From: Saprospiraceae bacterium
GTDB lineage: Bacteria; Bacteroidota; Bacteroidia; Chitinophagales; Saprospiraceae
Length of the DNA: 32,000 nucleotides
Assembly (NCBI GenBank): GCA_044350425.1
Contig: JBILHS010000031.1
Coordinates: forward strand, 13,637-45,636
Direction: 5' to 3'
Of this stretch, positions 2,635 to 30,914 are shown piece after piece; positions within the stretch are counted from its first letter, which is position 1, and each line of letters begins with the position of its first letter. A program made the position numbers and the translations under genes. The notes under the pieces are model-generated. The model saw nothing but the letters and a program-made list of their open reading frames with translations, had not been told where the DNA came from and did no database searches.

Positions 2635-2916
2635 TTACGCTGCGACAGCAAACATACGACCCTCTCCGGGTTGAACATTTGACTGCGGTCCCGCGAGGGA
2701 AGCAATCTGGTCTGGTGTGATCTGACGATTCATCAAATCATACACTTCAATTGCCTGGTCCCGCGTGATGGAAGGGAACTCGTTTAAAAACTCGTTCATA
2801 CTCACGCCAACCCGAAGGAAGTCGTAAAATGTCTCCACACGAACACGGGTCCCGCTAAAAACGGGTGCTCCATCCTGAATGTCAGGGTGTATGCTGATTG
2901 AGGAAAAAGGACTCAT
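2635..2916 (-). CDS. DUF433 domain protein (antitoxin-like HTH), no partner gene visible
   Basis: ISIHPDIQDGAPVFSGTRVRVETFYDFL...FPSITRDQAIEVYDL matches the DUF433 pattern. ATG at 2916 is preferred over the GTG at 2961 used by the ORF track. TAA stop. Confidence 0.6.
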   Translation of the reverse strand: MSPFSSISIHPDIQDGAPVFSGTRVRVETFYDFLRVGVSMNEFLNEFPSITRDQAIEVYDLMNRQITPDQIASLAGPQSNVQPGEGRMFAVAA

Positions 2917-3116
2917 CCGACACTGCTGTTTAAATTGTAATACTACGGGCCGGGACGACACAAATACAAGGGATTAAGAGAAACAGTGGATTAAAAACGA
3001 TTTAGTGGTGCGAAGTTAGAGAATGTTAACGCCGTTCAAAATTTTGCGTGATATTTTTTTAAAAAAATAGTACTTGCCCTGTTAAGGTTTGAAAGTACGG
3101 TAGGGTAAACCCTGAA

Positions 3117-4190
3117 TCAGAGGTGTTGGTCTCCGGATTTTTGCTTTACCAGTGCAGTGACTTGTTTTACTTCTTGTTCCTTTGATTTCGGATATATGAG
3201 TAATGCATCCGGGGTATCCACAATGATATAGTCATGCAGGTCTTTTACCACAGCAATTTTCCCTTTAGGAATTCTTACCAGCGTATCATGGGTGTCCAAT
3301 GCAATGATATTGCCTTGTAAGGCATTCCCGTTTTCATCTTTTGGGTACTCTGCGTGTAGACTTGCCCAGGTTCCGAGATCACTCCAACCAAATTCGGAAG
3401 GCAATGTATAGACGTTGGACGCATTTTCCATGATGGCAAAGTCCACCGATATATTGGGTGTAGTCGGGTAGGCCAGGTCAATAAAGGCTTGCTCCTCCGG
3501 GGTGTTGTAAACATTATTTCCTTTTTCCAGAATAGAATAGATCTCTGGCGCCAGTGCTTTGTAGGCACGAAGAATCGTCTCGGCACGCCAGATGAAAATA
3601 CCGGCATTCCAAAGATATTCGCCGGATTCCACATATTCCACGGCCGTTGGCAAACTGGGTTTTTCTGCAAACCGAAGTACTTTTCGAATGTCGACGTCTG
3701 CCTCTTCTCCAAATTGGATGTAGCCATAACCTGTGTCCGGGCGAGAAGGCTGGATCCCCAGTGTAAGCAATGCGTCATGCTTCGCTGAAAAATCCAGCGC
3801 GGTCTGGATCTTTTCAAGAAAAGCCTGTTCTTTTAAAACAATATGGTCAGAAGGGGCAATCACAAAATTTGCCTCTGGATCCAAGGCTGCCAGTTTAAAC
3901 GCCGTCCAGGCTACACAAGGCGCTGTGTTATTGCGACTGGGCTCACAAAGGATCTGGTTGGCGGTGATTTCCGGGATTTGCTCCAGGATAAGGTCCTTGT
4001 AAGCTGCATTGGTCACAATAAAAATATGGCTAGCGGGACAAATGGGCAAAAAACGCTCGAAGGTCAGCCGCAACAGGCTTTTGCCCACCCCCAGCATATC
4101 CAGGAATTGTTTGGGCCGTGCCTCGCGACTGCCCGGCCAGAATCGGCTGCCGACACCGCCGGCCATGATGGCTACATAGGTATGATTCAT
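3117..4190 (-). CDS. manC: Mannose-1-phosphate guanylyltransferase (GDP-mannose pyrophosphorylase)
   Basis: N-terminal AIMAGGVGSRFWPGSREARPKQF nucleotidyltransferase signature with full-length similarity to the ManC/CpsB N-terminal domain. 357 aa, TGA stop. Confidence 0.9.
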   Translation of the reverse strand: MNHTYVAIMAGGVGSRFWPGSREARPKQFLDMLGVGKSLLRLTFERFLPICPASHIFIVTNAAYKDLILEQIPEITANQILCEPSRNNTAPCVAWTAFKLAALDPEANFVIAPSDHIVLKEQAFLEKIQTALDFSAKHDALLTLGIQPSRPDTGYGYIQFGEEADVDIRKVLRFAEKPSLPTAVEYVESGEYLWNAGIFIWRAETILRAYKALAPEIYSILEKGNNVYNTPEEQAFIDLAYPTTPNISVDFAIMENASNVYTLPSEFGWSDLGTWASLHAEYPKDENGNALQGNIIALDTHDTLVRIPKGKIAVVKDLHDYIIVDTPDALLIYPKSKEQEVKQVTALVKQKSGDQHL

Positions 4191-4196
4191 GACTTT

Positions 4197-4266
4197 GATG
4201 TATGATGTATGATGTATGAACTATGATGTATGATGTATGAACTATGATGTATGATCTATGATGTAT
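4197..4266. repeat. Ten contiguous heptamers GATGTAT (variants GAACTAT, GATCTAT) with 21-bp higher-order periodicity, filling the fcl-manC junction
   Basis: Units counted by hand from 4197 to 4266. On the minus (mRNA) strand it reads ATACATC and ends 6 nt before the manC ATG (4190). Confidence 0.95.
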
Positions 4267-4273
4267 GGGGTGG

Positions 4274-6435: not shown

Positions 6436-7011
6436 CTATATATAATGTAACAAGCCGCATATTCCCTCCTTTAAGGAATATTCCTCGCCGCCTTCCTCGC
6501 AAACAGCGCTTCCCGCCTTAAAGTGCAGACGATTTCCCCGTCGACTCACCCAACCCATTTGTCTGGCAGGCACCCCGGTCATGAGTGCGAAATCCGGCAC
6601 ATCCTTAGTGACTACAGCGCCTGCTCCAATCATGCAATATCGCCCCAAAGTGATCCCACACAACACCGTTGCATTGGCGCCAATACTTGCCCCCTGTTTT
6701 ACGAGGGTGGGGCGAAACTCATTTTTGCGTTCTATGAAACTTCGAGGATTGACCACATTGGTAAATACCATACTGGGCCCTAAAAACACATCATCCTCGC
6801 ACACCACTCCGGTGTACAGCGAGACATTGTTTTGCACTTTTACACCTTTACCCAGGCTTACACCATCTGCCACAAAGACATTTTGACCTAAAATGCAATT
6901 TTCGCCCAAAACAGCGCCAGCGGAGACATGGCAAAAATGCCAGATGCGAGCACCCTCGCCGATCCGGGCGCCGGGGTCAATGATCGCGGAAGGGTGAGCA
7001 AAGTAGGGCAT
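6436..7011 (-). CDS. Left-handed beta-helix (hexapeptide) N-acetyltransferase, WbpD/WlbB-like
   Basis: Hexapeptide repeats run throughout ([37 protein letters not shown]...). The ATG overlaps the upstream TAA (TAATG at 7009-7013). This is one of only two genes here ending in TAG. Confidence 0.8.
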
Positions 7012-8046: not shown

Positions 8047-9192
8047 TTATCGGGCTTCAAAAAACGCTTTTACCGCCCCGGTGATGGTTGATAAAATTTC
8101 ATCCGTCATTTCAGAGTGCATCGGCAAGGAAAATACGGAAGCACAAAGGGATTCTGTAACAGGCAATTTCCCGCCTTTCCAAAAAGGAGCAAATGCGGGT
8201 TGATCATATAGGGGAACAGGGTAATAGATCATGCAGGGGATTCCTTTTTCCAATAAAAAAGCTTTCAAGGCGTCACGGGTTTCTACCGCATCCGGTGTGG
8301 TGATCTGTAGGGTATATTGGTGGAAGACGTGGGTTGAATTTGGTTCGCGGGCAGGGACCTTCAACTGTGGAATCTGTCCAAAAATACGGTCATAATAACC
8401 TGCGGCGCGATTCCGGGCGGCATTATATGTATCCAGATGTTTCAGTTTGGCATTGAGGACCACTGCCTGCATTGCATCCAGGCGGGAGTTTACCCCGATC
8501 TCATCATGGTAATACATTTTAGACTGCCCGTGGTTGGCGATCATCCTGGCTTTGGCGGCCAGGGCATCGTCGTTGGTCATCATGGCGCCACCGTCTCCGT
8601 AACAGCCCAGATTTTTGGATGGGAAAAAGGAGGTGCAGCCAAAATGTCCGATGGTTCCGGTCTTTTGAGTCCCGGCATCAGAGACACCAGGAGCGGTATA
8701 ATCTGCCCCAATGGCTTGTGCGTTGTCTTCTATCACAAATAAATCATGCTTTTTTGCCAAAGCCATGATGGGCGTCATATCGGCGGATTGTCCGAACAAA
8801 TGAACCGGGACAATGGCTTTGGTCCGAGGCGTGATCACGGCCTCCATATGCGCGGCTGTGATATTCATCGTGTCGGGGTCTACATCTGTCATAACAGGGG
8901 TGAGCCCCAGTAATCCGATCACTTCGGCGGTGGCCACGTAGGTAAACGCGGGTACAATAACCTCGTCTCCTGGTTTGAGTCCAAGCGCCATCATAGCGAT
9001 TTGAAGTGCATCTGTCCCGTTTGCGCAAGGAATCACGTGTTTTACGCCGAGATATTGTTCCAAACCTTCCCGAAAAGCGTTCACTTTGGGTCCTCCGATG
9101 AAAATACAGGAATCTAAGACCTCCTGCATTTCATGGTCTATCTCACTTTTGATGTGACCATATTGGGTTTTGAGGTCAACCATTTGTATCAT
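8047..9192 (-). CDS. DegT/DnrJ/EryC1/StrS-family PLP aminotransferase, WbpE-like
   Basis: MIQMVDLKTQY...; the PLP-lysine region is SFFPSKNLGCYGDGGA. First ATG at 9192 (alternatives are TTG 9201 and ATG 9183). TAA stop. Confidence 0.85.
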   Translation of the reverse strand: MIQMVDLKTQYGHIKSEIDHEMQEVLDSCIFIGGPKVNAFREGLEQYLGVKHVIPCANGTDALQIAMMALGLKPGDEVIVPAFTYVATAEVIGLLGLTPVMTDVDPDTMNITAAHMEAVITPRTKAIVPVHLFGQSADMTPIMALAKKHDLFVIEDNAQAIGADYTAPGVSDAGTQKTGTIGHFGCTSFFPSKNLGCYGDGGAMMTNDDALAAKARMIANHGQSKMYYHDEIGVNSRLDAMQAVVLNAKLKHLDTYNAARNRAAGYYDRIFGQIPQLKVPAREPNSTHVFHQYTLQITTPDAVETRDALKAFLLEKGIPCMIYYPVPLYDQPAFAPFWKGGKLPVTESLCASVFSLPMHSEMTDEILSTITGAVKAFFEAR

Positions 9193-9205
9193 AAAAATCA
9201 ATTTA

Positions 9206-9426
9206 AAATGTGGTCAATGTGTTAAATGTGGTCAATGTGTTAAATGTGGTCAATAAGTTAAATGTGGTCAATGTGTTTAATGTGGTCAATGTGATCAATG
9301 GATAAAAGCGGCCAATTTTACCTGGTCGAGCCCAAAACACATTGACCGCATTGACCACATTGACCACATTTAACTTATTGACCACATTTAACTTATTGAC
9401 CACATTTAACTTATTGACCACATTAA
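9206..9426. repeat. 221-bp inverted pair of tandem arrays filling the junction between the dehydrogenase and aminotransferase genes
   Basis: The left arm (9206-9301) is about five copies of the 18-mer AAATGTGGTCAATGTGTT. A spacer occupies 9302-9337. The right arm (9338-9426) consists of 9-mers CATTGACCA / CATTTAACT, the reverse complement of the left unit. Read directly. Confidence 0.95.
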
Positions 9427-10716
9427 TCAAAGTCTCCAATATTCAATTTCAGGGTCTAAGTGCTCGTAAAGGCCTTTCAGGTCCATTAAAATAGGGTTTT
9501 TGCCCATGATGGACTTGAAAAATGCGCTGTCAAAACTCCGGTAAACATCATGTGCGACGGCCACCACGACGGCATCGTAACCTGTGGATATTTGGTCGCG
9601 GAGTATTAAATTGTATTCCTGGGCGACCTCGTTTGCTTGGGCGTTTGAATCAACGATTTGTACCTCAATAGAAAAATCTTCGAGTTCGCGAATCAGGGCA
9701 GCGACTTTCGAGTTTCTGATATCTGATACGTTTTCTTTGAAGGTAATGCCAAGTACAAGCACTTTAGACTGGTGTGGGCTTTTGTCTTTTTTCAGGAGTA
9801 ATTGCACTAGTTTTTTAGCCACCCAGGCAGGCATTCCATCATTGACCCTGCGACCGCTCAGAATGACCTGAGGTTCGTAACCCATTTCGATGGATTTGTG
9901 CATCAGGTAATACGGATCAACTCCGATACAATGGCCGCCAACCAGTCCGGGGTAGAATTTCAGAAAATTCCATTTCGTACCGGCAGCTTTGATCACCTCT
10001 TGGGTATCGATGCCCATCCGGTCGAAGATGATGGCAAGTTCATTCATCAGCGAGATGTTGAGATCCCGCTGGGTATTCTCGATCACCTTCGCTGCTTCTG
10101 CCACTTTTATGTTGCTGGCACGATAAATTCCAGCCTTAATGATGTGACCATAAACCTGAGCAATTTCATTCAACGCTTCTTCGTCAGATCCACTTACAAT
10201 TTTTACGATTTGACTCAGGGGCTTGGTTTTGTCGCCCGGATTGATGCGTTCAGGGGAGTAGCCAAGTTTAAAATCCTGTCCAAGTCTTAGTCCGGATGAT
10301 TTTTCAAGAATGGGAAGGCAGTCCTCTTCCGTACATCCAGGATACACGGTGGATTCATACACCACGTAATCGCCTTTTTTTAGGACATTTCCGATGTGGG
10401 TCGAGGCTTTCTTTAGTGGATTTAGGTTGGGCACCTTGTATTCATCAATGTCGGTAGGAACCGCCACAACAAAAAAATGAGCTTCGGCCAGATCCTCCAG
10501 GCGATCAGAAAAAAGTATGTCCCGACCTGCGAATACGTCCGGCCCCAGTTCACGGCTGGGATCTTCTCCGCGTTGCATCATGGCAATGCGCTCACTATCA
10601 ATATCATAACCAATCACACGGAAATCCAACGCAAATTCTAATGCAATAGGCAGCCCTACGTACCCGAGGCCGATTACGGCAAGCGTTTTTTCCTTTTTTA
10701 GTAATGATTGGTACAT
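9427..10716 (-). CDS. UDP-N-acetyl-hexosamine 6-dehydrogenase (nucleotide-sugar dehydrogenase, WbpA/TviB family)
   Basis: MYQSLLKKEKTLAVIGLGYVGLPIALEF Rossmann start at ATG 10716. The ORF-track N-terminal extension to 10899 overlaps the NUDIX gene and has no family similarity. TGA stop. Confidence 0.88.
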   Translation of the reverse strand: MYQSLLKKEKTLAVIGLGYVGLPIALEFALDFRVIGYDIDSERIAMMQRGEDPSRELGPDVFAGRDILFSDRLEDLAEAHFFVVAVPTDIDEYKVPNLNPLKKASTHIGNVLKKGDYVVYESTVYPGCTEEDCLPILEKSSGLRLGQDFKLGYSPERINPGDKTKPLSQIVKIVSGSDEEALNEIAQVYGHIIKAGIYRASNIKVAEAAKVIENTQRDLNISLMNELAIIFDRMGIDTQEVIKAAGTKWNFLKFYPGLVGGHCIGVDPYYLMHKSIEMGYEPQVILSGRRVNDGMPAWVAKKLVQLLLKKDKSPHQSKVLVLGITFKENVSDIRNSKVAALIRELEDFSIEVQIVDSNAQANEVAQEYNLILRDQISTGYDAVVVAVAHDVYRSFDSAFFKSIMGKNPILMDLKGLYEHLDPEIEYWRL

Positions 10717-10772
10717 ACAAGGGCGTTCCTGATATTCGGCCGCAAAGTTACTCGATAGTGGATTGGTTTCAC

Positions 10773-11237
10773 TCACACATCCTGATGTCGGCCTAAATAA
10801 ACCACCCCGATGGTTCCATCCAGGGCTTCCCAAAATTCGGAGGTACCCAGCATTCGGCTCATGGGCACTTCCGAACCTTGAATATTGGAAGCTGACCACC
10901 AGGCTACCCCATGAATGTTGTCGTCTTCCATGATATTGTCCAGATGAATATTATCCGGGTGCTCATCCAGAGCCAGCTGACACTCAATAATGAGCGTTAC
11001 TGCAAACAGATCCGGCGCAAGGTATTCACTGATGAAACGAAGGTCACGCGCCTCCACCCTTAAACCAGTCTCCTCCCAGACCTCCCGCTCCACGCCACGA
11101 AAAATATCAGCGTCGGTAGGCTCCAGACGCCCACCCGGGATACTCCAACGTCGGACCCCATGACGGTTTTGCTGTTGGATGAGTAAGATCTCATCGCCCC
11201 TTCGGACCAGGCCTGCTACGCGGATTCTATGCACCAT
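10773..11237 (-). CDS. NUDIX hydrolase
   Basis: Nudix box GGRLEPTDADIFRGVEREVWEETGL. 154 aa, ATG at 11237. Confidence 0.85.
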   Translation of the reverse strand: MVHRIRVAGLVRRGDEILLIQQQNRHGVRRWSIPGGRLEPTDADIFRGVEREVWEETGLRVEARDLRFISEYLAPDLFAVTLIIECQLALDEHPDNIHLDNIMEDDNIHGVAWWSASNIQGSEVPMSRMLGTSEFWEALDGTIGVVYLGRHQDV

Positions 11238-11243
11238 GTTCTA

Positions 11244-11285
11244 GATGTATGAGGTATGATGTATGATGTATGATGTATGATGTGT
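11244..11285. repeat. Six heptamers GATGTAT (variants GAGGTAT, GATGTGT)
   Basis: Counted by hand. On the minus strand it reads ATACATC and ends 6 nt upstream of the NUDIX ATG. Confidence 0.95.
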
Positions 11286-11436: not shown

Positions 11437-11500
11437 CAACATCATACATCATACATCATACATCATACATCATAGTTCATACATCATACATCCCTACATC
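11437..11500. repeat. About nine heptamers ATACATC (variants CAACATC, ATAGTTC), the inverted partner of 11244-11285
   Basis: Counted by hand. It abuts the GTG start at 11501 with no gap. Confidence 0.95.
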
Positions 11501-15814: not shown

Positions 15815-16138
15815 TGCGGGAATAAATTGGTTGATAAGATGAAAGAAGTCAAATAGGGCGCAAAGGAAATGCCAGAGATTCGAATTTGCCGCGAAAGTGT
15901 CAGATATAAGTTCATTATTTTTGTAGTATTGGACGCGCTTCTATTTGCATATGCCCCTCAGCATAGCGCTTTTGTCTAAACTTCCTGTTTTCAAAGCACA
16001 AGGCGGTACTTTTGCCGTTAATAAAGACGGTCGCTCATTCCATGTGGGTTGCTGATTGTTTTTTAAAATTGATAACCGCTCTTGTCCAAGAAGCTCCAGG
16101 TAGGAAGCAATGGATGGAGCAAAAACTTTTTCACTGAC

Positions 16139-17845
16139 ATGATATTCAAAAAAAGGCTTCTCGTCGCTATCGCCTGTCTTCCGGGCATGCTTTTGTCGGC
16201 GCAAAGCAAAGCACCTGACAACTGGTTTAACCTAGATCCAACAGCGGATAAAGTGAACGGAACGGGTGGCGATGCGGCGATTCAATTGCTGAAAAGTAAA
16301 AGTAAAAAAAGCCAAACGGTCATCGTGGCTGTTCTGGACTCTGGAGTAGAGGTTGACCATGAGGACCTAAAGGATGTGATCTGGACCAATCCGGGTGAAA
16401 TTCCGGGTAACAAAAAGGATGATGACAACAATGGCTATGTGGATGACATCCATGGTTGGAACTTCCTCGCAGGCCCCGGTGGCAATGTAAACCACGAGAC
16501 CCTCGAGCTTACCCGCGAATACGCGCGACTAAAAAAGCGCTTCGATGGCACGGACCCGAAAAATCTTCATGGCGACGCTGCGGCTGAGTACAAGACCTGG
16601 ATGAAGGTCAAAGAAGATTTTGAGGCCCAGCGTGCTGAAGCGGTGAGTGGAATGGAAAATGCAACCAAACAACTCAAACCCATCGAAGATGCTTTCAATG
16701 GAGTTGAAAAAGCGCTAGCAGGCAAAGAGCTCAATGCTGACAATGTTGCAGCCATCAATGTCACCGGAAACGATGACTTGAAAAAGTCTGTGGAAATCAT
16801 CAAAGCAGTCATGGGGCAGGGACTGTCTTCAAGAAAAGATCTGGATGATGCTAAAAAAGAGGCTTCTGAGTTCTTCTACAACCAGGTGGAGTTTCAGCTC
16901 AACCCGGACTACAATGCCCGTGCTATGGTCGGTGATGATCCAACTGACCTTAAAAATCGTTTTTACGGCACCAATGAATACGAAGGCCCGGATGCTTTCC
17001 ACGGCACACACGTGGCGGGTATCATCGCTGCCAATCGCAACAACAACATTGGCATTCGCGGTGTGGCGGACAACGTGCGTATCATGACCGTGCGTTGTGT
17101 ACCAGACGGTGACGAACGTGACAAGGACGTAGCCAACGCGATCTACTATGCCGTAGACAATGGTGCCAGTGTGATTAATATGTCCTTTGGCAAATCTTAC
17201 AGCCCTGATAAGTGGTATGTAGACCAGGCCATGCGTTATGCTGCGGAACATGACGTTCTGCTCGTTCATGCTGCTGGCAACAGTTCTGCCAACAACGATG
17301 CAGAAGGTAATTTCCCCAATGACGAGCTGCAAAAGCCTGTCAAAAAGGGTCTTTTCGGCAAAGAAAAGCGCATTTATACCTGGATGGAGATCGGTGCACT
17401 CGGCTGGAAATCTGGTGATAAGCGCGTAGCCAGCTTCTCGAACTATGGTAAAAAGAATGTAGACCTGTTCTCACCTGGCGTACAGCTTCAATCTACCATC
17501 CCTGATGGTAAATATGGTCCGGCCAGCGGTACTTCCATGGCGAGCCCTGCAGCAGCAGGTGTAGCTGCATTGATCCGCTCCTACTATCCTGACTTGTCTG
17601 CCGTACAGGTAAAGCATATCATGGAGACCTCTGTAGTGAAGCAAGATGGCGAGGTTATCAAACCTGGCACTACCGAAAAAGTGAAATTTACGGAACTCTG
17701 TGTGAGCGGCGGAACAGTTAGTGCAACCAACGCAGTGGCTTTGGCAGAAACAACCAAAGCAGCTAAGAAGTCTAAAAAAGCGATCTGGCGTGAAGCTGGT
17801 CTGGGAAAACCTAAAAAGGTCCTGGGCAAAGAGCCACGTGCTTAA
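16139..17845 (+). CDS. S8-family (subtilisin-like) serine peptidase, secreted
   Basis: Catalytic triad contexts VAVLDSGVEVDHEDL, HGTHVAGIIAA and GTSMASPAAAGVAALI. The signal peptide MIFKKRLLVAIACLPGMLLSAQ starts at ATG 16139. The TTG at 16082 in the ORF track is less likely. Confidence 0.9.
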   Translation: MIFKKRLLVAIACLPGMLLSAQSKAPDNWFNLDPTADKVNGTGGDAAIQLLKSKSKKSQTVIVAVLDSGVEVDHEDLKDVIWTNPGEIPGNKKDDDNNGYVDDIHGWNFLAGPGGNVNHETLELTREYARLKKRFDGTDPKNLHGDAAAEYKTWMKVKEDFEAQRAEAVSGMENATKQLKPIEDAFNGVEKALAGKELNADNVAAINVTGNDDLKKSVEIIKAVMGQGLSSRKDLDDAKKEASEFFYNQVEFQLNPDYNARAMVGDDPTDLKNRFYGTNEYEGPDAFHGTHVAGIIAANRNNNIGIRGVADNVRIMTVRCVPDGDERDKDVANAIYYAVDNGASVINMSFGKSYSPDKWYVDQAMRYAAEHDVLLVHAAGNSSANNDAEGNFPNDELQKPVKKGLFGKEKRIYTWMEIGALGWKSGDKRVASFSNYGKKNVDLFSPGVQLQSTIPDGKYGPASGTSMASPAAAGVAALIRSYYPDLSAVQVKHIMETSVVKQDGEVIKPGTTEKVKFTELCVSGGTVSATNAVALAETTKAAKKSKKAIWREAGLGKPKKVLGKEPRA

Positions 17846-17875: not shown

Positions 17876-17924
17876 ATAGCGCCCTTTTGATCAGCTGATC
17901 AAAAGGGCGCTATTTTATTTTTTT
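17876..17924. terminator. Perfect 38-bp palindrome plus T-tract, terminating the S8 peptidase gene and possibly the convergent lipoprotein gene
   Basis: atagcgcccttttgatcag|ctgatcaaaagggcgctat (17876-17913); all 19 pairs were checked by hand. It is followed by tttatttttttat on the + strand and touches the minus-strand stop codon at 17915-17917. Confidence 0.75.
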
Positions 17925-18409
17925 ATCAACTCATTCAAAGGCGACTGTCGTTTCATTTTGATCGTTCGTTCGAAATTGGGTTTTTTCTGAACGGAGGTCC
18001 ACTCATCTTTACTGTTTTGGGTCCATTGAATGTTGTTCCAACCATCCCGAATGGGGTCAAGCTGAAAGGATTTTTTATCCAGCAAGACAGCCACCCATTC
18101 GCCATTGGGTCCCAGATAGAGATGGTTGTTCCTCCAATATACCCTGGAAAGATTGGTGCCAAAAGTGTCCTTTCCGTCAAATTGGTAAGAAACCACTTCC
18201 AGCGTGCTGTCTGTTGGGAAATGATAAGTCTGATAATAACCCGGGCCGGACACCTCACTTTTCCAGTTGCCCTCGATCCATCGGAGTTTTTGAAGATCTG
18301 ATTTTTTATAGATGGGTGGGTTTTGGGCATTGCCAGGCAATACAGGGGTTTCTTTGCAGGCAATGAGCATGCAAATGGAAAGCCCCAGGATCCAGAATTT
18401 TGTTGTCAC
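17915..18409 (-). CDS. Hypothetical lipoprotein
   Basis: From GTG 18409 the N-terminus reads MTTKFWILGLSICMLIAC with a lipobox LIAC. The TTG at 18439 is an alternative start. No recognisable domain. Confidence 0.55.
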   Translation of the reverse strand: MTTKFWILGLSICMLIACKETPVLPGNAQNPPIYKKSDLQKLRWIEGNWKSEVSGPGYYQTYHFPTDSTLEVVSYQFDGKDTFGTNLSRVYWRNNHLYLGPNGEWVAVLLDKKSFQLDPIRDGWNNIQWTQNSKDEWTSVQKKPNFERTIKMKRQSPLNELIKK

Positions 18410-18503
18410 AGGTGTAAAAGTTGAAGGATGAAAGTGCAAAGTTCTTAAAAGTCCGATTGCATTCTTTTAATTTGGCTACCAGATTTTTGAATGGTCAGCC
18501 AGA

Positions 18504-21582: not shown

Positions 21583-22062
21583 ATGCAACTCATCGGTGAA
21601 TATCCGGTGTCCCTTGACGACAAGGGCCGCTTGCGCTTACCAACCGCGCTGCTCCGCCAATTACCTGCTTTAACCGCAGGATCCAATGGCGACGGAGCTG
21701 CTTATGAATTTGTAGTAAACCGGGGGTTTGAGAAGTGTCTCACACTTTACCCCAAACCGGTCTGGGACGGCATCGCTGCCAAGTTGAGCCGTCTCAATAG
21801 TTTCAATGACCGGAACCGCGCCTTTGTACGCTCTTTTCACTACGGAGCGTATCCACTGACCACCGACAGCGCGGACAGAATCCTTTTGCAGAAGCCTTTG
21901 ATGGATTATGCGGGTATCACCAAGGATGCAGTACTGCTTGCTATGAACGGCAAGGTTGAAATCTGGTCGCCAGAGCAATATGCTTCCACCGCCGCCTTTG
22001 ATCCGAATGAATTTGCTGATTTGGCAAATGACGTGATGGGCGGGGAGAACGATGATGTATAA
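21583..22062 (+). CDS. mraZ: Transcriptional regulator MraZ
   Basis: MQLIGEYPVSLDDKGRLRLPTALLRQL with a second half-domain ...TTDSADRILLQKPL. 159 aa. The TAA at 22060-22062 lies inside the first heptamer array. Confidence 0.93.
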   Translation: MQLIGEYPVSLDDKGRLRLPTALLRQLPALTAGSNGDGAAYEFVVNRGFEKCLTLYPKPVWDGIAAKLSRLNSFNDRNRAFVRSFHYGAYPLTTDSADRILLQKPLMDYAGITKDAVLLAMNGKVEIWSPEQYASTAAFDPNEFADLANDVMGGENDDV

Positions 22063-22095
22063 GGTATGAAGTATGATGTATGAAGTATGATGTAT
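22054..22095. repeat. Six heptamers GATGTAT (variants AAGGTAT, GAAGTAT) overlapping the mraZ stop codon
   Basis: Counted by hand. Confidence 0.95.
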
Positions 22096-22143
22096 GAAAG
22101 GCTTAAGCTGAATGCGAGAGTGCATTTTCAAGCTTAGTTTTTC

Positions 22144-22199
22144 ACACATCATACTTCATACATCATACATCATACATCATACATCATATATCATACATA
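22144..22199. repeat. Eight heptamers ATACATC (variants ACACATC, ATACTTC, ATATATC, ATACATA), the inverted partner of 22054-22095
   Basis: Counted by hand. It ends 2 nt before the rsmH ATG at 22202. Confidence 0.95.
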
Positions 22200-22201
22200 A
22201 T

Positions 22202-23146
22202 ATGGTGTACCACGAGTCTGTCCTATTACACGAAAGCATTGATCTACTAGGCATTACGCCTGGTGGGGTTTATGTAGATGCGACGTTTGGCGGCGGCGGT
22301 CACTCCAAATTGATACTCGAAAAAATGGGCGAAAAAGGTCGCCTGTTTGCCTTCGATCAGGATGAGGATGCTAAGCGAAACACGGAACAGCAGGCGTTTT
22401 CAAGCCATTCTGGCTTTGTTTTCATTCCATCGAATTTCAGGCATTTGAAACGGCAATTACGTGCAGAAGGCGTAAGACCAGGCACTGTAAATGGAATCCT
22501 TGCAGATCTGGGTGTAAGCAGCCACCAGCTGGATACAGCAGAAAGGGGATTCTCTTATCGATTCGAAGCAGCACTCGATATGCGGATGAGTCGCCTGGAT
22601 GGGGAAACAGCTGCGGACATACTCAATACACGAAGTGCAGAAGAACTGCAGCGCATTTTTAGCGAACTTGGGGAGTTGAGAAACTCTAAAACGCTGGCAC
22701 ATGCAGTGATACAGGAGCGGGAACGAAAGCGTTTTCGAACCACAGGCGACCTGCTGGAATTGGCTACCAAGAATCTGATGGGAGAACGTATGCGCTACCT
22801 CTCACAGGTTTTTCAGGCCTTGCGCATGGAAGCTAATGATGAACTCGGGGCGCTGGAAGATTTTATGAAGGATGCTTTGGAAATGCTGGCGCCGGGTGGA
22901 AAACTGGCAGTGATCACCTTTCATTCGCTGGAAGATCGAATGGTGAAGAATTATATGAAAGCGGGCAATGTAGCGGGAGAGCCGGACCAGGATTTTTATG
23001 GCAATATCACAAAGCCCTGGAAACTGGTAACCAAAAAGCCTGTAGAAGCAAGCCAGGCAGAAACCAAGCAAAATGCCCGCTCCAGAAGTGCAAAGCTTCG
23101 GGTCGCCGCAAAAAATGTAACTAACGAACAATTTAAAACGAAATAA
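22202..23146 (+). CDS. rsmH: 16S rRNA (cytosine1402-N4)-methyltransferase
   Basis: MVYHESVLLHESIDLL...YVDATFGGGGHSK...ITFHSLEDRMVKN. ATG 22202 was chosen because the upstream part of the ORF-track entry is a translation of the repeat. Confidence 0.93.
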   Translation: MVYHESVLLHESIDLLGITPGGVYVDATFGGGGHSKLILEKMGEKGRLFAFDQDEDAKRNTEQQAFSSHSGFVFIPSNFRHLKRQLRAEGVRPGTVNGILADLGVSSHQLDTAERGFSYRFEAALDMRMSRLDGETAADILNTRSAEELQRIFSELGELRNSKTLAHAVIQERERKRFRTTGDLLELATKNLMGERMRYLSQVFQALRMEANDELGALEDFMKDALEMLAPGGKLAVITFHSLEDRMVKNYMKAGNVAGEPDQDFYGNITKPWKLVTKKPVEASQAETKQNARSRSAKLRVAAKNVTNEQFKTK

Positions 23147-23176: not shown

Positions 23177-23485
23177 ATGGCTAATAAGTTGCTTAATGCC
23201 CTTAACGTAAGTCGCCACACCACAGATCTGGTGTTTGGTAATTTTCAATTTCTGCTCTTTATAGGCGGATTGGGTATTCTGTACATCGCCAATGCACATT
23301 ACTCTGAAAAAGGGGTGCGGCGTATTCAGTCGTTGCAGAAGGAAATAAAAGAGTTGAAATGGGAATATACCTCGATCAAAAGTGAAACGATGTATAAGAG
23401 TATGCAGAGTCAGATTGATGAGAGTCTGGAGCCTGTAGGGCTTGATTTGGAGAACAAAGGTCCTAAAGTGATAAGTGTTAAGTGA
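23177..23485 (+). CDS. ftsL: Bacteroidota-type cell-division protein FtsL
   Basis: 102 aa, with a single TM helix (FQFLLFIGGLGILYIANAHY) followed by a coiled coil (IQSLQKEIKELKWEY). It occupies the conserved position between rsmH and ftsI. The TGA lies inside the repeat array. Confidence 0.8.
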   Translation: MANKLLNALNVSRHTTDLVFGNFQFLLFIGGLGILYIANAHYSEKGVRRIQSLQKEIKELKWEYTSIKSETMYKSMQSQIDESLEPVGLDLENKGPKVISVK

Positions 23486-23498
23486 TAAGTGTTAAGTG
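23464..23498. repeat. Five heptamers of the type (A/T)TAAGTG, with a 14-bp higher-order unit ATAAGTGTTAAGTG, overlapping the ftsL stop
   Basis: Read directly: aaagtg ataagtg ttaagtg ataagtg ttaagtg. Confidence 0.9.
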
Positions 23499-23524: not shown

Positions 23525-23926
23525 ATGGAAAATCAACGACCTAATAAAGTGGTACTAAGAGAAAAGAGTTTTTTACGGGCCATTAGAATTGTCAGGCTCC
23601 GTAAGCATTTGCGCGAACAAAAAAAGGAGTATGAAATATCGAGGTAGTTGTTCAAGAGTGGTACAAATCCAGGCACAATGGTTAAGGAGTCAGAGTATGC
23701 GCAGTCGGGAGCTGATTTTATAAATAAGCTAAAAGTCGCCCAAAAGGAATTGAATGAAACCAGATATTGGATTGAACTGCTTTTTGCTACTGACTACCTC
23801 TCAGAATCTGAAAAAGTGTCCATTCTAAATGATGTGGATGAAGTAATGAGATTAACGACCAGTTCAATTAAAACTCGAAAAGCCAATCTCGAATCAAGTA
23901 AAAAGCACAGCTCTAAAACCACTTAA
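23525..23926 (+). pseudogene. Four-helix-bundle protein gene (23S rRNA intervening-sequence protein / Avd family, PF05635-like) with an in-frame TAG at 23645-23647
   Basis: Hand translation from ATG 23525 gives MENQRPNKVVLREKSFLRAIRIVRLRKHLREQKKEYEISR*LFKSGTNPGTMVKESEYAQSGADFINKLKVAQKELNETRYWIELL... It is collinear with the family pattern ...EKSF.F...I..L...L...KEY.LSKQLLRSGTSIGAN..EA...QS..DF..KL.IA.KE..ET.YWL.LL. The stop falls where the family has Gln (CAG to TAG). Confidence 0.75.
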
Positions 23927-23947
23927 TACTAACCACTTAACACTAAC
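23920..23947. repeat. Four heptamers CACTTAA / TACTAAC / CACTTAA / CACTAAC, the imperfect inverted partner of 23464-23498
   Basis: Read directly. It contains the TAA stop of the four-helix-bundle ORF and ends 3 nt before the ftsI GTG (23951). Confidence 0.9.
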
Positions 23948-26478: not shown

Positions 26479-28035
26479 ATGCTTTTAACCTATCTCCTTC
26501 AAAACCTGCATGTGCTCGAAGCACAAGGCAATACAGACATCGAAATCGGACAGATCCGTTTCGATAGTCGTGCTGTGCAGTCTGGAGATGTGTTTGTGGC
26601 GGTACGTGGTGCAGCGGTAGATGGGCATCAGTTCATTGACAGGGCGATTGAAAATGGGGCGGTTGCGGTTGTTTGCGAACGTCCAAGTGATTTTTTGGTT
26701 GAAAGGGACCATACTGATAGTCTCACTTCAAGTGAGACTATCAGTATGGTCCCTTTCAACCAAAAAATCACTTGGATCAAAGTCGCCGATGCTACAGAAG
26801 CACTCGGACAAATAGCTTCCAACTTTTACGGCAATCCTTCTGCAGCCTTAACCCTGATCGGCATCACCGGAACCAATGGAAAAACAACCACGGCTACCTT
26901 GCTCTGGCAACTTTTTACGGCATTGGGCTACAAATGCGGTCTGATCGGAACCGTCGAAAACAGGGTAGGGGAAGAAGTATTGGTGAGTACCCACACTACA
27001 CCAGATGCGGTTCGGGTTCACGAACTGATCCGCAAAATGGCTGATGCTGGTTGTAGTCATGTGTTTATGGAAGTCAGCAGCCATGCGGTGCATCAACGTA
27101 GAATTGCAGGGGCGACGTTTGCCGGCGGGGTTTTTACCAACCTAACCCATGATCACCTCGACTATCATAAAACCTTTGCAGAATACCGGGATACCAAAAA
27201 GAAGTTCTTTGACGATTTGCCAAAAACGGCCTTTGCGCTGACCAATGCCGATGATAAAAACGGGGCGATCATGTTGCAAAACACCCGGGCTGACAAGAAA
27301 TCCTATGGTTTGAAAAAGCCGGCTGATTTCAAAGCAAAGATCATAGAAAATAGCCTGGAGGGGCTGCATTTGGAGTTGGATGGGGCGCAAATTCACGCCC
27401 GGATGATCGGTGAGTTCAATGCTTACAACCTGACTGCTGCCTATGGCGTGGCTATGTTGCTTGCTCAGAACCAGACCTCGGAGGTTTTAAAAACCTCCGA
27501 GGTCTACCAAACGACCCTCCTGACCGCACTCAGCAATCTCTCCGGCGCAGAAGGCCGGTTCGACTATATCAACCACTCGTCAAAACCCGGTTGTATCGGA
27601 ATCGTAGACTATGCCCACACCCCGGATGCGCTTGAAAAAGTACTGGAGACCATCGCCAAACTGAAAAAGAAAAACTCCCGCATTATCACGGTTACCGGTG
27701 CTGGCGGAGACCGGGACAAGACCAAACGACCCATCATGGCTCAGGTTTGTGCCAGATTAAGTGACCAGCTAGTTTTGACCAGCGACAACCCGAGGACGGA
27801 AGACCCGGCTGCAATTCTGAAAGATATGGAAGCCGGTTTGGATGCAGCAGGACTAAAGAAAACACTCACCATCCAGGACCGTGAACAAGCCATAAAAACA
27901 GCTATCCGGCTGGCCGGCCCGAACGATGTGATCCTGGTAGCTGGAAAAGGCCATGAGAAGTATCAGGATATACAAGGCGTAAAATATCCTTTTGATGACA
28001 AACAGATGTTGTCAAAGTTTTTTGAGGAAAAATGA
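26479..28035 (+). CDS. murE: UDP-N-acetylmuramoyl-L-alanyl-D-glutamate--2,6-diaminopimelate ligase, carrying two in-frame palindromic segments
   Basis: GITGTNGKTTTA P-loop, ...DYAHTPDALEKVL... and ...LTSDNPRTEDP... are canonical MurE blocks. 518 aa. Confidence 0.93.
   Translation: MLLTYLLQNLHVLEAQGNTDIEIGQIRFDSRAVQSGDVFVAVRGAAVDGHQFIDRAIENGAVAVVCERPSDFLVERDHTDSLTSSETISMVPFNQKITWIKVADATEALGQIASNFYGNPSAALTLIGITGTNGKTTTATLLWQLFTALGYKCGLIGTVENRVGEEVLVSTHTTPDAVRVHELIRKMADAGCSHVFMEVSSHAVHQRRIAGATFAGGVFTNLTHDHLDYHKTFAEYRDTKKKFFDDLPKTAFALTNADDKNGAIMLQNTRADKKSYGLKKPADFKAKIIENSLEGLHLELDGAQIHARMIGEFNAYNLTAAYGVAMLLAQNQTSEVLKTSEVYQTTLLTALSNLSGAEGRFDYINHSSKPGCIGIVDYAHTPDALEKVLETIAKLKKKNSRIITVTGAGGDRDKTKRPIMAQVCARLSDQLVLTSDNPRTEDPAAILKDMEAGLDAAGLKKTLTIQDREQAIKTAIRLAGPNDVILVAGKGHEKYQDIQGVKYPFDDKQMLSKFFEEK
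26682..26776. repeat. Perfect 95-bp palindrome (47-bp arms, central C at 26729) inside murE
   Basis: All 47 base pairs were verified by hand. The core GATAGTCTCACTTCAAGTGAGACTATC lies at 26716-26742. Confidence 0.97.
27473..27505. repeat. Perfect 33-bp palindrome (16-bp arms, central A at 27489) inside murE
   Basis: agacctcggaggtttt a aaaacctccgaggtct, verified by hand. It encodes (Q)TSEVLKTSEV(Y). Confidence 0.95.
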
Positions 28036-28136
28036 CCAGCCAAAGTTTGGCCATTTGTGAAATACAACCCGCCTTCGCTGAAGCTATGGCGGGTGAAGAT
28101 AAAATAGTGGAGGGACTACTATTTTGATTTTGAGCA

Positions 28137-28169
28137 GGTTTTGGGGCGATGAAATATCGCCCCAAAACC
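28137..28169 (+). other. Perfect 14-bp stem with a 5-nt loop in the 232-bp murE-mraY spacer (possible attenuator or processing site)
   Basis: ggttttggggcgat gaaat atcgccccaaaacc, read directly. There is no clear T-tract after it, so it is not called a terminator. Confidence 0.5.
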
Positions 28170-28267
28170 AATTTTGAAAACCGAATCACGAATTTAAAAG
28201 AACGAAATCAATCCTTTGCACTCCAAATCACTAAAGCCCCAAATAGCCAGATCAACATTAATATACC

Positions 28268-29527
28268 ATGCTTGTCCATCTATTTGAATATCTGAAAGAA
28301 CATTACGACCTGCCAGGAGCAGGTCTGTTCAAATTCATCTCGTTCCGGGCTGGGGTTGCGATGCTGTTGTCGCTTTTGATTTCGATGATTATTGGGAAGC
28401 GGATCATTGACTGGCTTCAGAAACTGCAGATTGGTGAAACTGTGCGCGATCTCGGACTTGCAGGACAGACATCCAAAGCAGGTACGCCCACCATGGGAGG
28501 GATTATCATCGTAGCAGCTACGTTGATCCCTTGTTTGCTGCTGGCCCGATTGGACAATGTGTATATCCTGCTCATGCTTTTTAGCACGGTTTGGATGTTC
28601 GCGATCGGTTTTTTGGATGATTACATCAAGGTGTTCAAAAAGGATAAACAAGGACTGAAGGGTAAGTTTAAGATCATGGGACAGGTTGGTTTGGGCTTGA
28701 TCGTAGGCATTACGATGTTGATGAATGACGAGGTGGTGGTACGGATGGATCCTGAAGTAGCCAATCAAAAAGGCTATGAGATCATGGAGACGCTTTTTGT
28801 AAAAGATCCATCTGCACCCAATACCTACAAGGAGATGGTGTATGTAAAAGCAGCCATCACAAACGTCCCGTTTTTCAAAAATAACGAACTGGATTACTCC
28901 CGTTTCTTATGGTTTTTGGGTGATAATATTGGAAATCTGAGCTCGATCTTCTTTGTATTGATGGTCATTCTCGTCATCACTGCAGTAAGCAATGGGGCGA
29001 ACCTGACAGATGGTCTGGATGGGCAGGCGGCCGGTGTTTCCGCAATAATTATTGCAACGCTTGGAATCCTGGCCTACCTGAGCGGCAACTCAGTTGCAGC
29101 AGATTTTTTGAAGATATTTTATATCCCATACAGCAGCGAGTTGGTGATTTTTTCCGCCTGCTTGCTGGGTGGATGTATCGGTTTCTTGTGGTACAATGTG
29201 TTTCCCGCACGGGTATTTATGGGTGATACAGGAAGTTTGACGTTGGGTGGAATCATTGCTGCATTGGCGATTGTAACACGGAAAGAACTGTTGATCCCGC
29301 TTTTATGCGGGGTATTCCTGGTTGAGAACCTTTCGGTGATCGTTCAGGTATGGTATTTCAAATATACCAAAAGGAAATATGGGGAAGGGCGACGGGTGTT
29401 TCTTATGGCGCCACTGCATCACCATTATCAGAAGAAAGGCTACCATGAGGTAACCATTTCGGTTCGGTTCTGGATCGTACAGATTTTACTGGCAGTAGCG
29501 ACGATCATTACATTGAAGATCAGATAA
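28268..29527 (+). CDS. mraY: Phospho-N-acetylmuramoyl-pentapeptide transferase
   Basis: ...[10 protein letters not shown]..., ...[11 protein letters not shown]..., ...[12 protein letters not shown]... and ...APLHHHY... are conserved MraY blocks. 419 aa. Confidence 0.95.
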
Positions 29528-29531
29528 AAAC

Positions 29532-30914
29532 ATGAAAAAGCGAATCGTCATATTAGGCTCCGGAGAATCCGGTACAGGAGCGGCCCTACTGGCCCGACAC
29601 CTGGGCTATGACGTATTCGTATCGGATAAAGGCGCGATCAAAGCACAATATCAGGCAGAATTGAACGAAGCAGGTATTGCCTGGGAAGAAAACCAGCATA
29701 CGCTGGATCAGATATTGAATGCTCAGGAGATTATAAAAAGTCCGGGTATTCCTGAAAAAAGTGAAGTGATGAAAGCCGTGCGGGAAAAAGGTATCAACGT
29801 GATCGGTGAAATTGAATTTGGATATCGTCATGCCGGCAAGTGCCAGATCGTTGCTATTACCGGCTCCAATGGTAAAACGACGACTACCGAGTTGACATAT
29901 CACCTGATGAAAACCGCCGGATTGGATGTCCGTAAAGGTGGAAATGTGGGCAATTCATTTGCCCGAATGGCGCTGGAAGATCTGAAATCGAAGAGAACAA
30001 AAGCCGCTGAACGGATTTTTGTTTTGGAGGTTTCAAGCTTTCAATTGGATGATATTCAGCAGTTTAGACCTAAAATAGCGATGCTGTTAAATATTACTCC
30101 GGACCATTTGGACCGCTACGATTATAAATTGGAAAACTATGCGGCGTCTAAGTTTCGGGTGACTATGAATCAAGGCCGCGGCGATAAGTTCATTTACAAT
30201 GGGTTTGATCCGATCCTGAAAGTTCATCTTGATAGTCTCACTTCAAGTGAGACTATCAAGATGAACTTTCAGGATCGGATCAAACCCAAACAAATCGCCA
30301 TTCGAAAAGGCTTTTTCAAAAACGGCCAGATCAAAGTAGGAAAAGATTTCTACGACATGACAAAAAGTGCCCTTCGGGGCCCGCACAATATGTTCAATGC
30401 AGTGTGTGCCATTCGGGCATCCTTGTTGTTGGGTGCAGCTGCGGACAAAATTCAGGAAGGTTTGAACACATTTACACCACCCCCTCACCGCTTGGAAAAG
30501 GTGGCTGAGATCGGTGGCGTAACGTGGATCAACGATTCGAAAGCAACCAATGTAGACTCAGTTTTCTACGCCCTGCAGGCGATGGATGTGCCGACGGTGT
30601 GGATCGTTGGCGGCCAGGACAAGGGGAACGATTATTCGCCACTCTTGAAATTGGTGAAAAAAAAGGTGAAGGCCATCGTTTGCATGGGTGTAGATAATTC
30701 AAAGATAATCAGTGTGTTCGGCGGAATTAAGAAGCCAATGGTAGAAACAGGAAGTGCCCAGGAAGCTGTAAAGGCAGCGGCAAATTTTGCCAAATCCGGA
30801 GATGTCATATTGCTCAGCCCGGCTTGTGCGAGTTTTGATTTGTTCAAAAATTATGAGGATCGAGGAGCGCAGTTTCGGGAAGCTGTTTTACAAATCACCC
30901 ACTCACCAAAATAA
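29532..30914 (+). CDS. murD: UDP-N-acetylmuramoylalanine--D-glutamate ligase, carrying one in-frame palindromic segment
   Basis: KKRIVILGSGESGTGAALLA Rossmann-like start, the AITGSNGKTTTT P-loop and ...SPACASFDLFKNYEDRG. 460 aa. Confidence 0.93.
   Translation: MKKRIVILGSGESGTGAALLARHLGYDVFVSDKGAIKAQYQAELNEAGIAWEENQHTLDQILNAQEIIKSPGIPEKSEVMKAVREKGINVIGEIEFGYRHAGKCQIVAITGSNGKTTTTELTYHLMKTAGLDVRKGGNVGNSFARMALEDLKSKRTKAAERIFVLEVSSFQLDDIQQFRPKIAMLLNITPDHLDRYDYKLENYAASKFRVTMNQGRGDKFIYNGFDPILKVHLDSLTSSETIKMNFQDRIKPKQIAIRKGFFKNGQIKVGKDFYDMTKSALRGPHNMFNAVCAIRASLLLGAAADKIQEGLNTFTPPPHRLEKVAEIGGVTWINDSKATNVDSVFYALQAMDVPTVWIVGGQDKGNDYSPLLKLVKKKVKAIVCMGVDNSKIISVFGGIKKPMVETGSAQEAVKAAANFAKSGDVILLSPACASFDLFKNYEDRGAQFREAVLQITHSPK
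30200..30288. repeat. Perfect 89-bp palindrome (44-bp arms, central C at 30244) inside murD
   Basis: All 44 pairs were verified by hand. The same core GATAGTCTCACTTCAAGTGAGACTATC lies at 30231-30257. Confidence 0.97.

Follow-up and report, generated by a model that had tools for sequence, protein, structure and literature searches.

Long perfect palindromes in murE and murD of a Saprospiraceae bacterium probably grew from a dispersed REP-like hairpin

A 32-kb stretch of DNA from a Saprospiraceae bacterium, which we call the window and whose positions serve as coordinates throughout, carries two long perfect palindromes inside the cell-wall genes murE and murD, and both are built around one and the same core. 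This core is a short (~33 nt) ‘double-foot’ palindrome resembling repetitive extragenic palindromic (REP) sequences; it is dispersed in Bacteroidota and tied to REP-associated tyrosine transposases (RAYTs), that is, HUH/Y1 transposases of the IS200/IS605 superfamily. Related contigs and loci (L-numbers) and ortholog proteins (P-numbers) provide sequences from before and after lengthening of the arms, and both palindromes are probably explained jointly by a RAYT-linked REP core and by arm growth through template switching at quasi-palindromes.

The two palindromes and their shared core

Both host genes are part of the dcw cell-wall cluster. By its open reading frame (ORF) and translation, murE (26479-28035, + strand) encodes a UDP-MurNAc-tripeptide synthetase of 518 aa and hosts two in-frame palindromic inserts; its orthologs have 484-515 aa, and the identical murE gene of L037 is annotated with the Pfam domains Mur_ligase, Mur_ligase_M and Mur_ligase_C. 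The ORF of murD (29532-30914, + strand), with Pfam Mur_ligase domains, encodes a UDP-MurNAc-L-Ala--D-Glu ligase of 460 aa, its uninterrupted orthologs having 443-444 aa. The repeat finder placed a 95-nt perfect palindrome in murE at 26682-26776 (arms 26682-26728 and 26730-26776, 47 nt each, centre C 26729; encoding PSDFLVERDHTDSLTSSETISMVPFNQKITW) and an 89-nt one in murD at 30200-30288 (arms 30200-30243 and 30245-30288, 44 nt each, centre C 30244; encoding GFDPILKVHLDSLTSSETIKMNFQDRIKP). At both loci the arms are 100% complementary, there is no wobble pair in the 44-47 bp of stem, and single-strand folding gave -54.3 kcal/mol for murE and -51.6 for murD (z = -19 relative to shuffles).

Common to both loci is a 29-nt core, TGATAGTCTCACTT-C-AAGTGAGACTATCA, which consists of the 27-nt sequence GATAGTCTCACTTCAAGTGAGACTATC (26716-26742 in murE, 30231-30257 in murD; chance expectation 0 in 100 shuffles) and the flanking T/A. 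The core starts at an offset of 237 in murE (26716-26479) and of 699 in murD (30231-29532), both divisible by three, so that both copies are read as DSLTSSETI. An earlier reading of the window from its letters (the sequence-only reading) had reported the identical centre of two long palindromes, its common frame, and a TGA and a TAG in one of the alternative frames; repeat finder, shuffles and ORF offsets bear this out. It had also described the arms as different between the loci apart from a weak TGAAAG...CAT resemblance. Beyond the core, the murE sequence is indeed unlike that of murD, but the resemblance was dropped as a trace of an element, and TGAAAG was judged coincidental, being in murD conserved native L-K codons. 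A terminator reading of both palindromes was likewise rejected, as no T run follows and the consensus scan flags neither. Rfam at the gathering threshold returned no family for the whole window and six repeat-rich loci.

The core was searched for by its exact 23-nt centre, TAGTCTCACTTNAAGTGAGACTA, in one genome per species and, additionally, in metagenomes. The genome scan gave 36 loci in metagenome-assembled genomes (MAGs) of Saprospiraceae, Lewinellaceae, Prolixibacteraceae, Paludibacteraceae and Mariniphaga, and the metagenome scan gave 23 further loci. On these Bacteroidota contigs there are 63 distinct core copies, whose perfect arms are modally 16 nt long and measure 14-24 nt in 59 of 63. 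Thus, the unit of the family is a 33-nt palindrome of 11 codons, A-N-TGATAGTCTCACTT-N-AAGTGAGACTATCA-N'-T, and not a 90-bp element. In murE this unit occupies 26713-26745 (ACTGATAGTCTCACTT-C-AAGTGAGACTATCAGT, TDSLTSSETIS), and the same 33-mer is the modal form of the 63 copies. The MAG JBJXGZ (Saprospiraceae F1F2.bin.152) alone has at least 10 copies, DATGYU at least seven and the window two. Flanks are unrelated from locus to locus, arms past ~16-18 nt are locus-specific, and no target-site duplication was seen around the unit. Most copies, including both in the window, have the foot ATAG...CTAT, and a minority subfamily has GTAG (TGGTAGTCTCAC...GTGAGACTACCA; L001, L019, L029, L031, L034 and others). 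An excess of arm length was considered as a statistic and dropped as confounded, because some subfamilies have a longer consensus half-site (TTACTGATAG...).

Beyond the window the core recurs both in genes and in intergenic DNA, and the frame of the copies was recorded. Intergenic units often form half-site arrays ([L][L][R], [L][R][R] or [L][R][R][R]), and L061 has a symmetric one, [L][L][R][R]. Of the 63 copies, 22 are within open spans of 180 aa or more, and 17 of those 22 are read in the frame DSLT(S/L)SETI. As for the other two frames, one contains TGA and TAG and the other is a hydrophobic LIVSLxVRLS; hence selection leaves the sole stop-free, hydrophilic frame in genes. The reading frame is kept by the palindromes in murE (two inserts), murD, aroB and ~15 other long ORFs. 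At one further locus (L004, centre 1657) a REP copy with centre A provides the TAA stop of a 336-aa open span, and REPs may reshape C-termini as well.

RAYT-like genes are directly flanked by the core in six loci of other genomes (L014, L030, L010, L064, L056 and L044), so that an IS200/IS605-type TnpA, named as a candidate partner in the sequence-only reading, does co-occur with it in the form of these Y1 genes. In L014 a hairpin stands on either side of the gene (234-839), with centres at positions 174 and 854. The RAYT-like ORF of L030 (221 aa; 2648-3313, minus strand) has hairpin arrays on both sides, and a REP with partial half-sites lies in frame within it, between the HUH and Tyr motifs (EEDTDSLTQSETISKTISTPSKTIS); this protein is only 36% identical to the Lewinellaceae ones. 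In the remaining four loci the hairpin is ~30-110 nt from the gene, on the flank covered by the contig. The proteins match NCBIfam REP_Tyr_transpos with E values of 1e-12 to 2e-10, at 40-48 bits against a cut-off of 80. Pfam gave no match for the L030 protein because the in-frame REP splits the domain, and its identity was resolved by NCBIfam and intact homologs. LMPNHFH, in which NHFH is the HUH motif, and YIHxNP are invariant in six RAYT-like homologs, and the sole match of their profile in the PDB was E. coli TnpA-REP 4er8, with both HUH and Tyr motifs aligned. We infer that the RAYT moves the core, and the core family is a newly found member of an already known class, the REP/RAYT elements. 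‘Undescribed for this phylum’, as the sequence-only reading put it, was too strong for the core, since double-foot and in-frame REPs are on record (PMC6006769; for other phyla PMC3733652).

Growth of the arms in murD, murE and aroB

In murD the event can be read by comparison with L042 and L041, a sister lineage of 92% nt identity to the window in this gene. The motif NGFDP(I/V)(L/V) is conserved in 120 of 120 MurD orthologs, including the uninterrupted 443-aa forms (...FIYNGFDPILKEN--MVETKAKKVVIRKGFF; P0042); thus the outer left arm at 30201-30221 (+ strand; GGGTTTGATCCGATCCTGAAA, GFDPILK) is native, and its DNA is identical in L042 and L041. It is followed by a 45-nt palindrome common to window and sister (30222-30266), made up of GTTCATCT, the 29-nt core at 30230-30258 and AGATGAAC; window, L042 and L041 are identical over these positions, and in L042 this palindrome of 22-nt arms is centred at 6705. 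The sister layout is therefore ...GGGTTTGATCCGATCCTGAAA, then GTTCATCT-core-AGATGAAC, then CCG and AAACCC. In the DNA alignment of the window, L042, L041 and L043, the window replaces the sister's CCG (P) by TTTCAGGATCGGATC (30267-30281, + strand; FQDRI), a net gain of 12 nt, and this segment is the exact reverse complement of 30207-30221, the DPILK codons. The AAACCC that comes next (30282-30287, + strand; KP) complements GGGTTT at 30201-30206 and is already present in L042 and L041; it is the likely return point of a template switch, and KPKQ or xPKQ is conserved in MurD orthologs. Both bounds of the event, the 22-nt stem and the AAACCC/GGGTTT patch, thus pre-existed in L042/L041.

FQDRI occurs in no other MurD ortholog of the 120 aligned, and CCG is not derivable from the 15-mer by one deletion, so that a gain in the window lineage is the simpler history. 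As far as alignment can tell, the murD change bears the marks of intramolecular template switching at a quasi-palindrome. The idea of the sequence-only reading that arms grow by inverted copying of host flanks holds here, as 30267-30281 mirrors native 30207-30221 and is lacking in the sister. Its timing does not: the copy was supposed to date from the insertion of the core, and in L042 the core, with its 22-nt arms, is free of the extension.

The murE palindrome has a different history. In L043, a Saprospiraceae MAG of ~82% nt identity, the site reads CCAAGTGATAGTCTCgCTT-C-AAGtGAGACTATCACTTGG, with 19-nt arms and one mismatch, encoding PSDSLASSETITW. The window keeps the outer 9-10 nt of this hairpin and has 27 nt more inside each arm (23 new nt and a repeated TGAT/ATCA), in all 54 nt or 18 aa, consistent with 518 against 500 residues. 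On the right side the new segment is GTATGGTCCCTTTCAACCAAAAA (26744-26766, + strand; MVPFNQK), which is not native Mur sequence and is lacking in L043 and other murE orthologs; on the left side it is the exact reverse complement, TTTTTGGTTGAAAGGGACCATAC (26692-26714, + strand; FLVERDH), lacking in both L042 and L043. A shorter homologous segment, AGTTTGAACAAGTCG, is found in L042 on the right side only (SLNKS against SMVPFNQK in the window), the left arm there being decayed. Hence the right segment is the older copy, and the left one a mirror copy made in the window lineage. Further out, ATCACTTGGA (26767-26776, + strand; ITW-I) is native, as uninterrupted orthologs (P0207 and P0221, for example) conserve (I/V/L)TW, and its inverted match TCCAAGTGAT (26682-26691, + strand; PSD) is already in L043. 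Both bounds of the murE event are present in L043 as well, namely the 14-nt core stem and CCAAG(TGAT)/(ATCA)CTTGG.

The event in murE is therefore the mirroring of a one-arm insert, and not the addition of a core plus one native arm that had been proposed for it, since the 23-nt mid-arm segments of both sides have no counterpart in uninterrupted murE orthologs. The native part of the right arm comprises only the outermost ~9 nt (ATCACTTGG, ITW). The more general claim of one native arm per locus stands in part for murD (30201-30221) and falls for murE save these last nucleotides.

Growth of the same kind recurs elsewhere. In aroB, L068 has canonical 16-nt arms followed by TCGCTA, where its relative L027 has CAGTTA through three clustered substitutions; the CAGTT of L027 is the reverse complement of the native, conserved AACTG (E-L) and brings the arms from 16 to 21 nt. 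At the murE site itself, L067 has a 61-nt perfect palindrome (30-nt arms) beside a relic right half-site, and a G.T half-step of L043 is there a full G-C pair, a compensated change. In L056 and L061, 37-nt arms built from mirrored half-sites surround the same core.

The second insert of murE is a 33-nt perfect palindrome at 27473-27505, AGACCTCGGAGGTTTT-A-AAAACCTCCGAGGTCT, read in frame as TSEVLKTSEV and belonging to a different REP-like family, partial copies of which occur at unrelated loci (L011 2793-2829, L020 187-215). It is an insert relative to uninterrupted orthologs, and other orthologs hold KFTKPSRFSK or RLSKSSRLGK in its place. At the same site it is perfect both in L042, whose two arms carry complementary G/C swaps, each synonymous, and in L043, with centre T. 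Compared with L043, the window is identical at 28 of 29 positions in the core (26715-26743) and at 32 of 33 in this second palindrome, against only 54% at third-codon positions of the neighbouring mraY. Such conservation may point to more than simple template switching, namely selection or conversion; re-insertion is a further possible cause.

All these inserts lie where the host proteins vary. The AlphaFold models of the Mur proteins are confident overall (pLDDT, a confidence score, 89 and 85) and drop below 50 exactly at the inserts: in MurE at residues 77-92, between the strands 63-66 and 98-102, which places the insert in a loop, and in MurD at residues 239-248, between the strands 219-223 and 253-257. 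Among Saprospiraceae orthologs, the insert sites in murD, murE (two) and aroB are hypervariable loops. In other lineages the same loops hold palindrome-like peptides (RVTSSHPV, AVTSSHRLT, LTTQSRPTT, KFTKPSRFSK), so that the families found in MurD, MurE and AroB loops are DSLTSSETI, (R/A/G)VTSSH(P/R)(V/L), LTTQSRPTT and KFTKPSRF, some of them doubled (L043 13668-13685). These sequences suggest re-use of the loops, or replacement of one hairpin family by another.

Proposed mechanism and competing explanations

In the mechanism that we propose, REP copies would insert between genes and also within them, in frame, where the encoded protein has a surface loop that tolerates them. A resident REP hairpin would then nucleate intramolecular template switching during DNA synthesis, by the quasi-palindrome mechanism that Ripley modelled and Lovett studied in E. 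coli: the strand being synthesised would fold back onto the REP stem, copy its own opposite flank or arm, and rejoin the template where a complementary patch lies further out. Each event would convert an interrupted quasi-palindrome into a longer perfect palindrome. For murD a single event would suffice, in which CCG was replaced by 15 nt copied backwards from the DPILK codons with return at AAACCC, and for murE a single event that mirrored a 27-nt stretch found in one arm only. In essential genes, only changes by multiples of three would survive. The before-and-after sequences of murD, murE and aroB are read directly from the contigs; that the copying took place by replicative template switching is what we infer from them.

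Several observations weigh against this explanation. No RAYT gene was found by tblastn with the L030 and L014 RAYTs as queries in the 32-kb window, L037, L038, L042 or L043; the RAYT matches in other loci fall under the curated cut-offs (NCBIfam as given above, Pfam Y1_Tnp E 0.017), and most copies have an ATAG rather than the canonical GTAG foot. The direction of the murD event rests on one sister lineage together with mechanistic parsimony, because more distant orthologs hold other hairpins at the site. For the 23-nt mid-arm of murE together with its flank, short-word BLAST against the collected related sequences returned only the segment itself and its mirror. The murE hairpin of L042 has decayed to 14 of 19 paired positions, so that perfecting of palindromes is not constant, and the REP cores are conserved far above the synonymous expectation.

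Among the alternatives, the one that survives best ascribes growth to the element's own enzyme. After an HUH nick at the hairpin foot, either the 3' end set free or a replication fork stalled at the protein covalently joined to the DNA would fold back and prime on the opposite flank, and arm lengthening would be a by-product of the RAYT instead of ordinary replication errors. We consider this doubtful. The core is tied to RAYT genes, and long perfect palindromes and half-site arrays cluster round it, also beside a RAYT gene (L056, with its 37-nt arms); moreover, in E. coli protein-DNA crosslinks are reported to stimulate quasi-palindrome template switching (PMC6357072). Enzyme-driven growth would leave the same sequence outcome as plain replicative template switching, so that our data cannot separate the two, but neither the window nor the contigs of close relatives contain a RAYT, and the different REP-like palindrome at 27473-27505 stays at 33 nt in three lineages.

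That the hairpins are instead kept because the stem serves a purpose in the mRNA or the DNA (to pause translation, stabilise the transcript or bind a protein, for instance), with perfection maintained by purifying and compensatory selection, we consider unlikely, and somewhat more so than growth by the enzyme. It would account for REP cores that are much more conserved than nearby synonymous sites, for compensatory changes such as L043 G.T to L067 G-C, and for the complementary G/C swap of the 27473-27505 palindrome in L042. It does not account for arms that are locus-specific, that of murD being merely the antisense of adjacent codons, nor for the closest lineage, in which the murD arms are 22 nt long and the murE stem has decayed. 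No wobble pair is found in 44-47 bp, there is no Rfam match and no terminator-like T run, and in other lineages the same loops hold unrelated hairpin families.

The sequence-only reading had offered as an alternative that both loci are diverged copies of a ~90-bp element resembling a MITE (miniature inverted-repeat transposable element), with arms kept identical by hairpin-templated repair. The similar length of two perfect palindromes and the weak TGAAAG...CAT resemblance of their arms speak for such whole-element insertion, which we reject as very improbable: the conserved unit measures ~33 nt among 63 copies with unrelated flanks, the left arm in murD is conserved coding sequence native to the gene, in which TGAAA encodes the conserved LK, and the core of the sister lineage lacks the outer arm.

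Assemblers and amplification are known to have trouble with palindromes, and fold-back chimeras could in principle have made these. The closest named relatives are uncultured Saprospiraceae, and the exact 460-aa MurD protein stands on at least seven contigs from several independent metagenome assemblies (JGI 3300037516, 3300059473, 3300043465 and 3300034357; ENA ERZ27272076); the murD palindrome recurs base for base in L037-L040 and that of murE in L037 and L038. Such identity across different samples and pipelines rules out an assembly artefact as their origin, and as both palindromes are internal to long contigs, keep the frame of an essential gene and have junctions with unique flanks that need real reads, an artefact of any kind is hardly credible.

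Other repeats of the window, known systems and implications

Besides the REP-like inserts, the window holds further repeats. A 38-nt perfect palindrome at 17876-17913, with the halves ATAGCGCCCTTTTGATCAG and CTGATCAAAAGGGCGCTAT, lies between the convergent ORFs 16082-17845 (+) and 17915-18439 (-) and looks like a bidirectional terminator; no further copy of it was found in the collected related sequences. Intergenic arrays of a 7-nt unit (TGATGTA / ATGATGT) occur at 4196-4267, at 11244-11283 with 11439-11492 and at 22052-22098 with 22142-22202, and their inverted pairs at two of these places give long imperfect hairpins. Two inverted arrays of the 18-nt unit AAATGTGGTCAATGTGTT, with about five copies each and 45-50 nt apart (9206-9293 and 9341-9424), stand between the ORFs 8047-9201 (-) and 9427-10899 (-). 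Inverted 14-nt tandem arrays (AAGTGATAAGTGTT / AACCACTTAACACT; 23466-23498 and 23917-23947) bracket a small gene at ~23678-23926, located between ftsL and a penicillin-binding protein gene, that matches Pfam 23S_rRNA_IVP (PF05635, a four-helix bundle). This gene is not at that place in the sister contig L042 and thus may be a mobile cassette.

The REP/RAYT elements, in-frame REPs and template switching are each already known; their combination here is new. TnpA-REP subclass 2.4 (RAYT group 4), abundant in Cyanobacteria and Bacteroidetes, has ‘double-foot’ REPs with GT[AG]G at one end and the complementary sequence at the opposite one (Quentin et al. 2018, PMC6006769); REPs inserted in frame are on record for this subclass as well (PMC6006769). 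Like REP/REPIN and RAYT systems, the present family is a short dispersed palindrome in many copies, with a (G/A)TAG foot and its complement at the far end; its copies flank a single HUH/Y1 gene, form clusters or arrays and stand in frame inside other genes, those of L030 between the HuH and Tyr motifs looking exactly like subclass 2.4 (PMC6006769). It differs in its mostly ATAG rather than GT[AG]G foot, in its perfect 33-nt palindrome with a 1-nt centre, and in RAYT proteins that are under the NCBIfam and Pfam cut-offs and lie outside the window. Arm growth into host coding sequence is beyond the published description in the literature searched.

In-frame intragenic REPs are also known from other phyla (Di Nocera et al. 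2013, PMC3733652). Like these (Opitutus terrae, Thauera and others; PMC3733652) and like the Rickettsia palindromic elements, the inserts lie in frame in housekeeping genes, add a peptide to a protein that is still functional and can be several per gene. The Rickettsia elements are reported to lose repeat identity over time (PMC6649704), whereas the stems here are perfect and lengthened, and the present unit is shorter (33 nt) and belongs to another phylum.

Perfecting and expansion of inverted repeats by template switching has comparative evidence in Proteobacteria (PMC5941160), and is also reported from yeast (PMC8604942, PMC13100816). As in quasi-palindrome template switching, the changes seen here are templated over several nucleotides, are exact complements of the other arm and are bounded by existing complementarity, and they make the arms longer and alike. 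Most known cases are short, between a few and ~20 nt; here the nucleating stem comes from a mobile REP, and 12-27 nt of coding sequence are gained in essential genes, giving perfect palindromes of 89-95 nt. Mitochondria of Nematomorpha also have long perfect inverted repeats in functional coding genes, with all-or-none perfection and with gains and losses between lineages, for which template switching or conversion was proposed (PMC6649704). There both arms encode conserved regions and no mobile core is known, whereas here REP-seeded inserts stand in variable loops on a bacterial chromosome. With MITEs and other palindrome-associated elements derived from IS200/IS605 the core shares its small size, its hairpin, its non-autonomy and the need for a transposase encoded elsewhere; it lacks a distinct internal sequence framed by terminal inverted repeats, shows no target-site duplication and has a unit of only 33 nt, and its long arms are locus-specific and outside the element. 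Our literature searches returned no REP-seeded growth of palindromes into host coding sequence and no such repeat family in Saprospiraceae.

Template switches are usually inferred statistically; here there are three before-and-after pairs, in murD, murE and aroB. They would mean that a mobile REP hairpin can nucleate palindrome growth inside essential genes, and that this process adds protein sequence which is the antisense translation of adjacent native codons, as FQDRI is of DPILK. Given SbcCD and palindrome instability in E. coli, fragility is to be expected of perfect palindromes 89-95 bp long; hence their fixation in murE and murD is informative on the tolerance of palindromes in this lineage.

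A more far-reaching view, which we hold only tentatively as a long shot, is that the Saprospiraceae REP hairpins and a RAYT that nicks covalently at the hairpin foot form an active palindrome-building system, which would recolonise the same housekeeping loops, overwrite earlier hairpin families and write the antisense of adjacent codons into proteins. If so, new peptide segments, and long perfect palindromes that the host has to put up with, would arise by a dedicated route driven by the element. With hairpin families competing for the same loops, the Saprospiraceae clade offers a natural system for REP spread, core conservation and the role of the RAYT.

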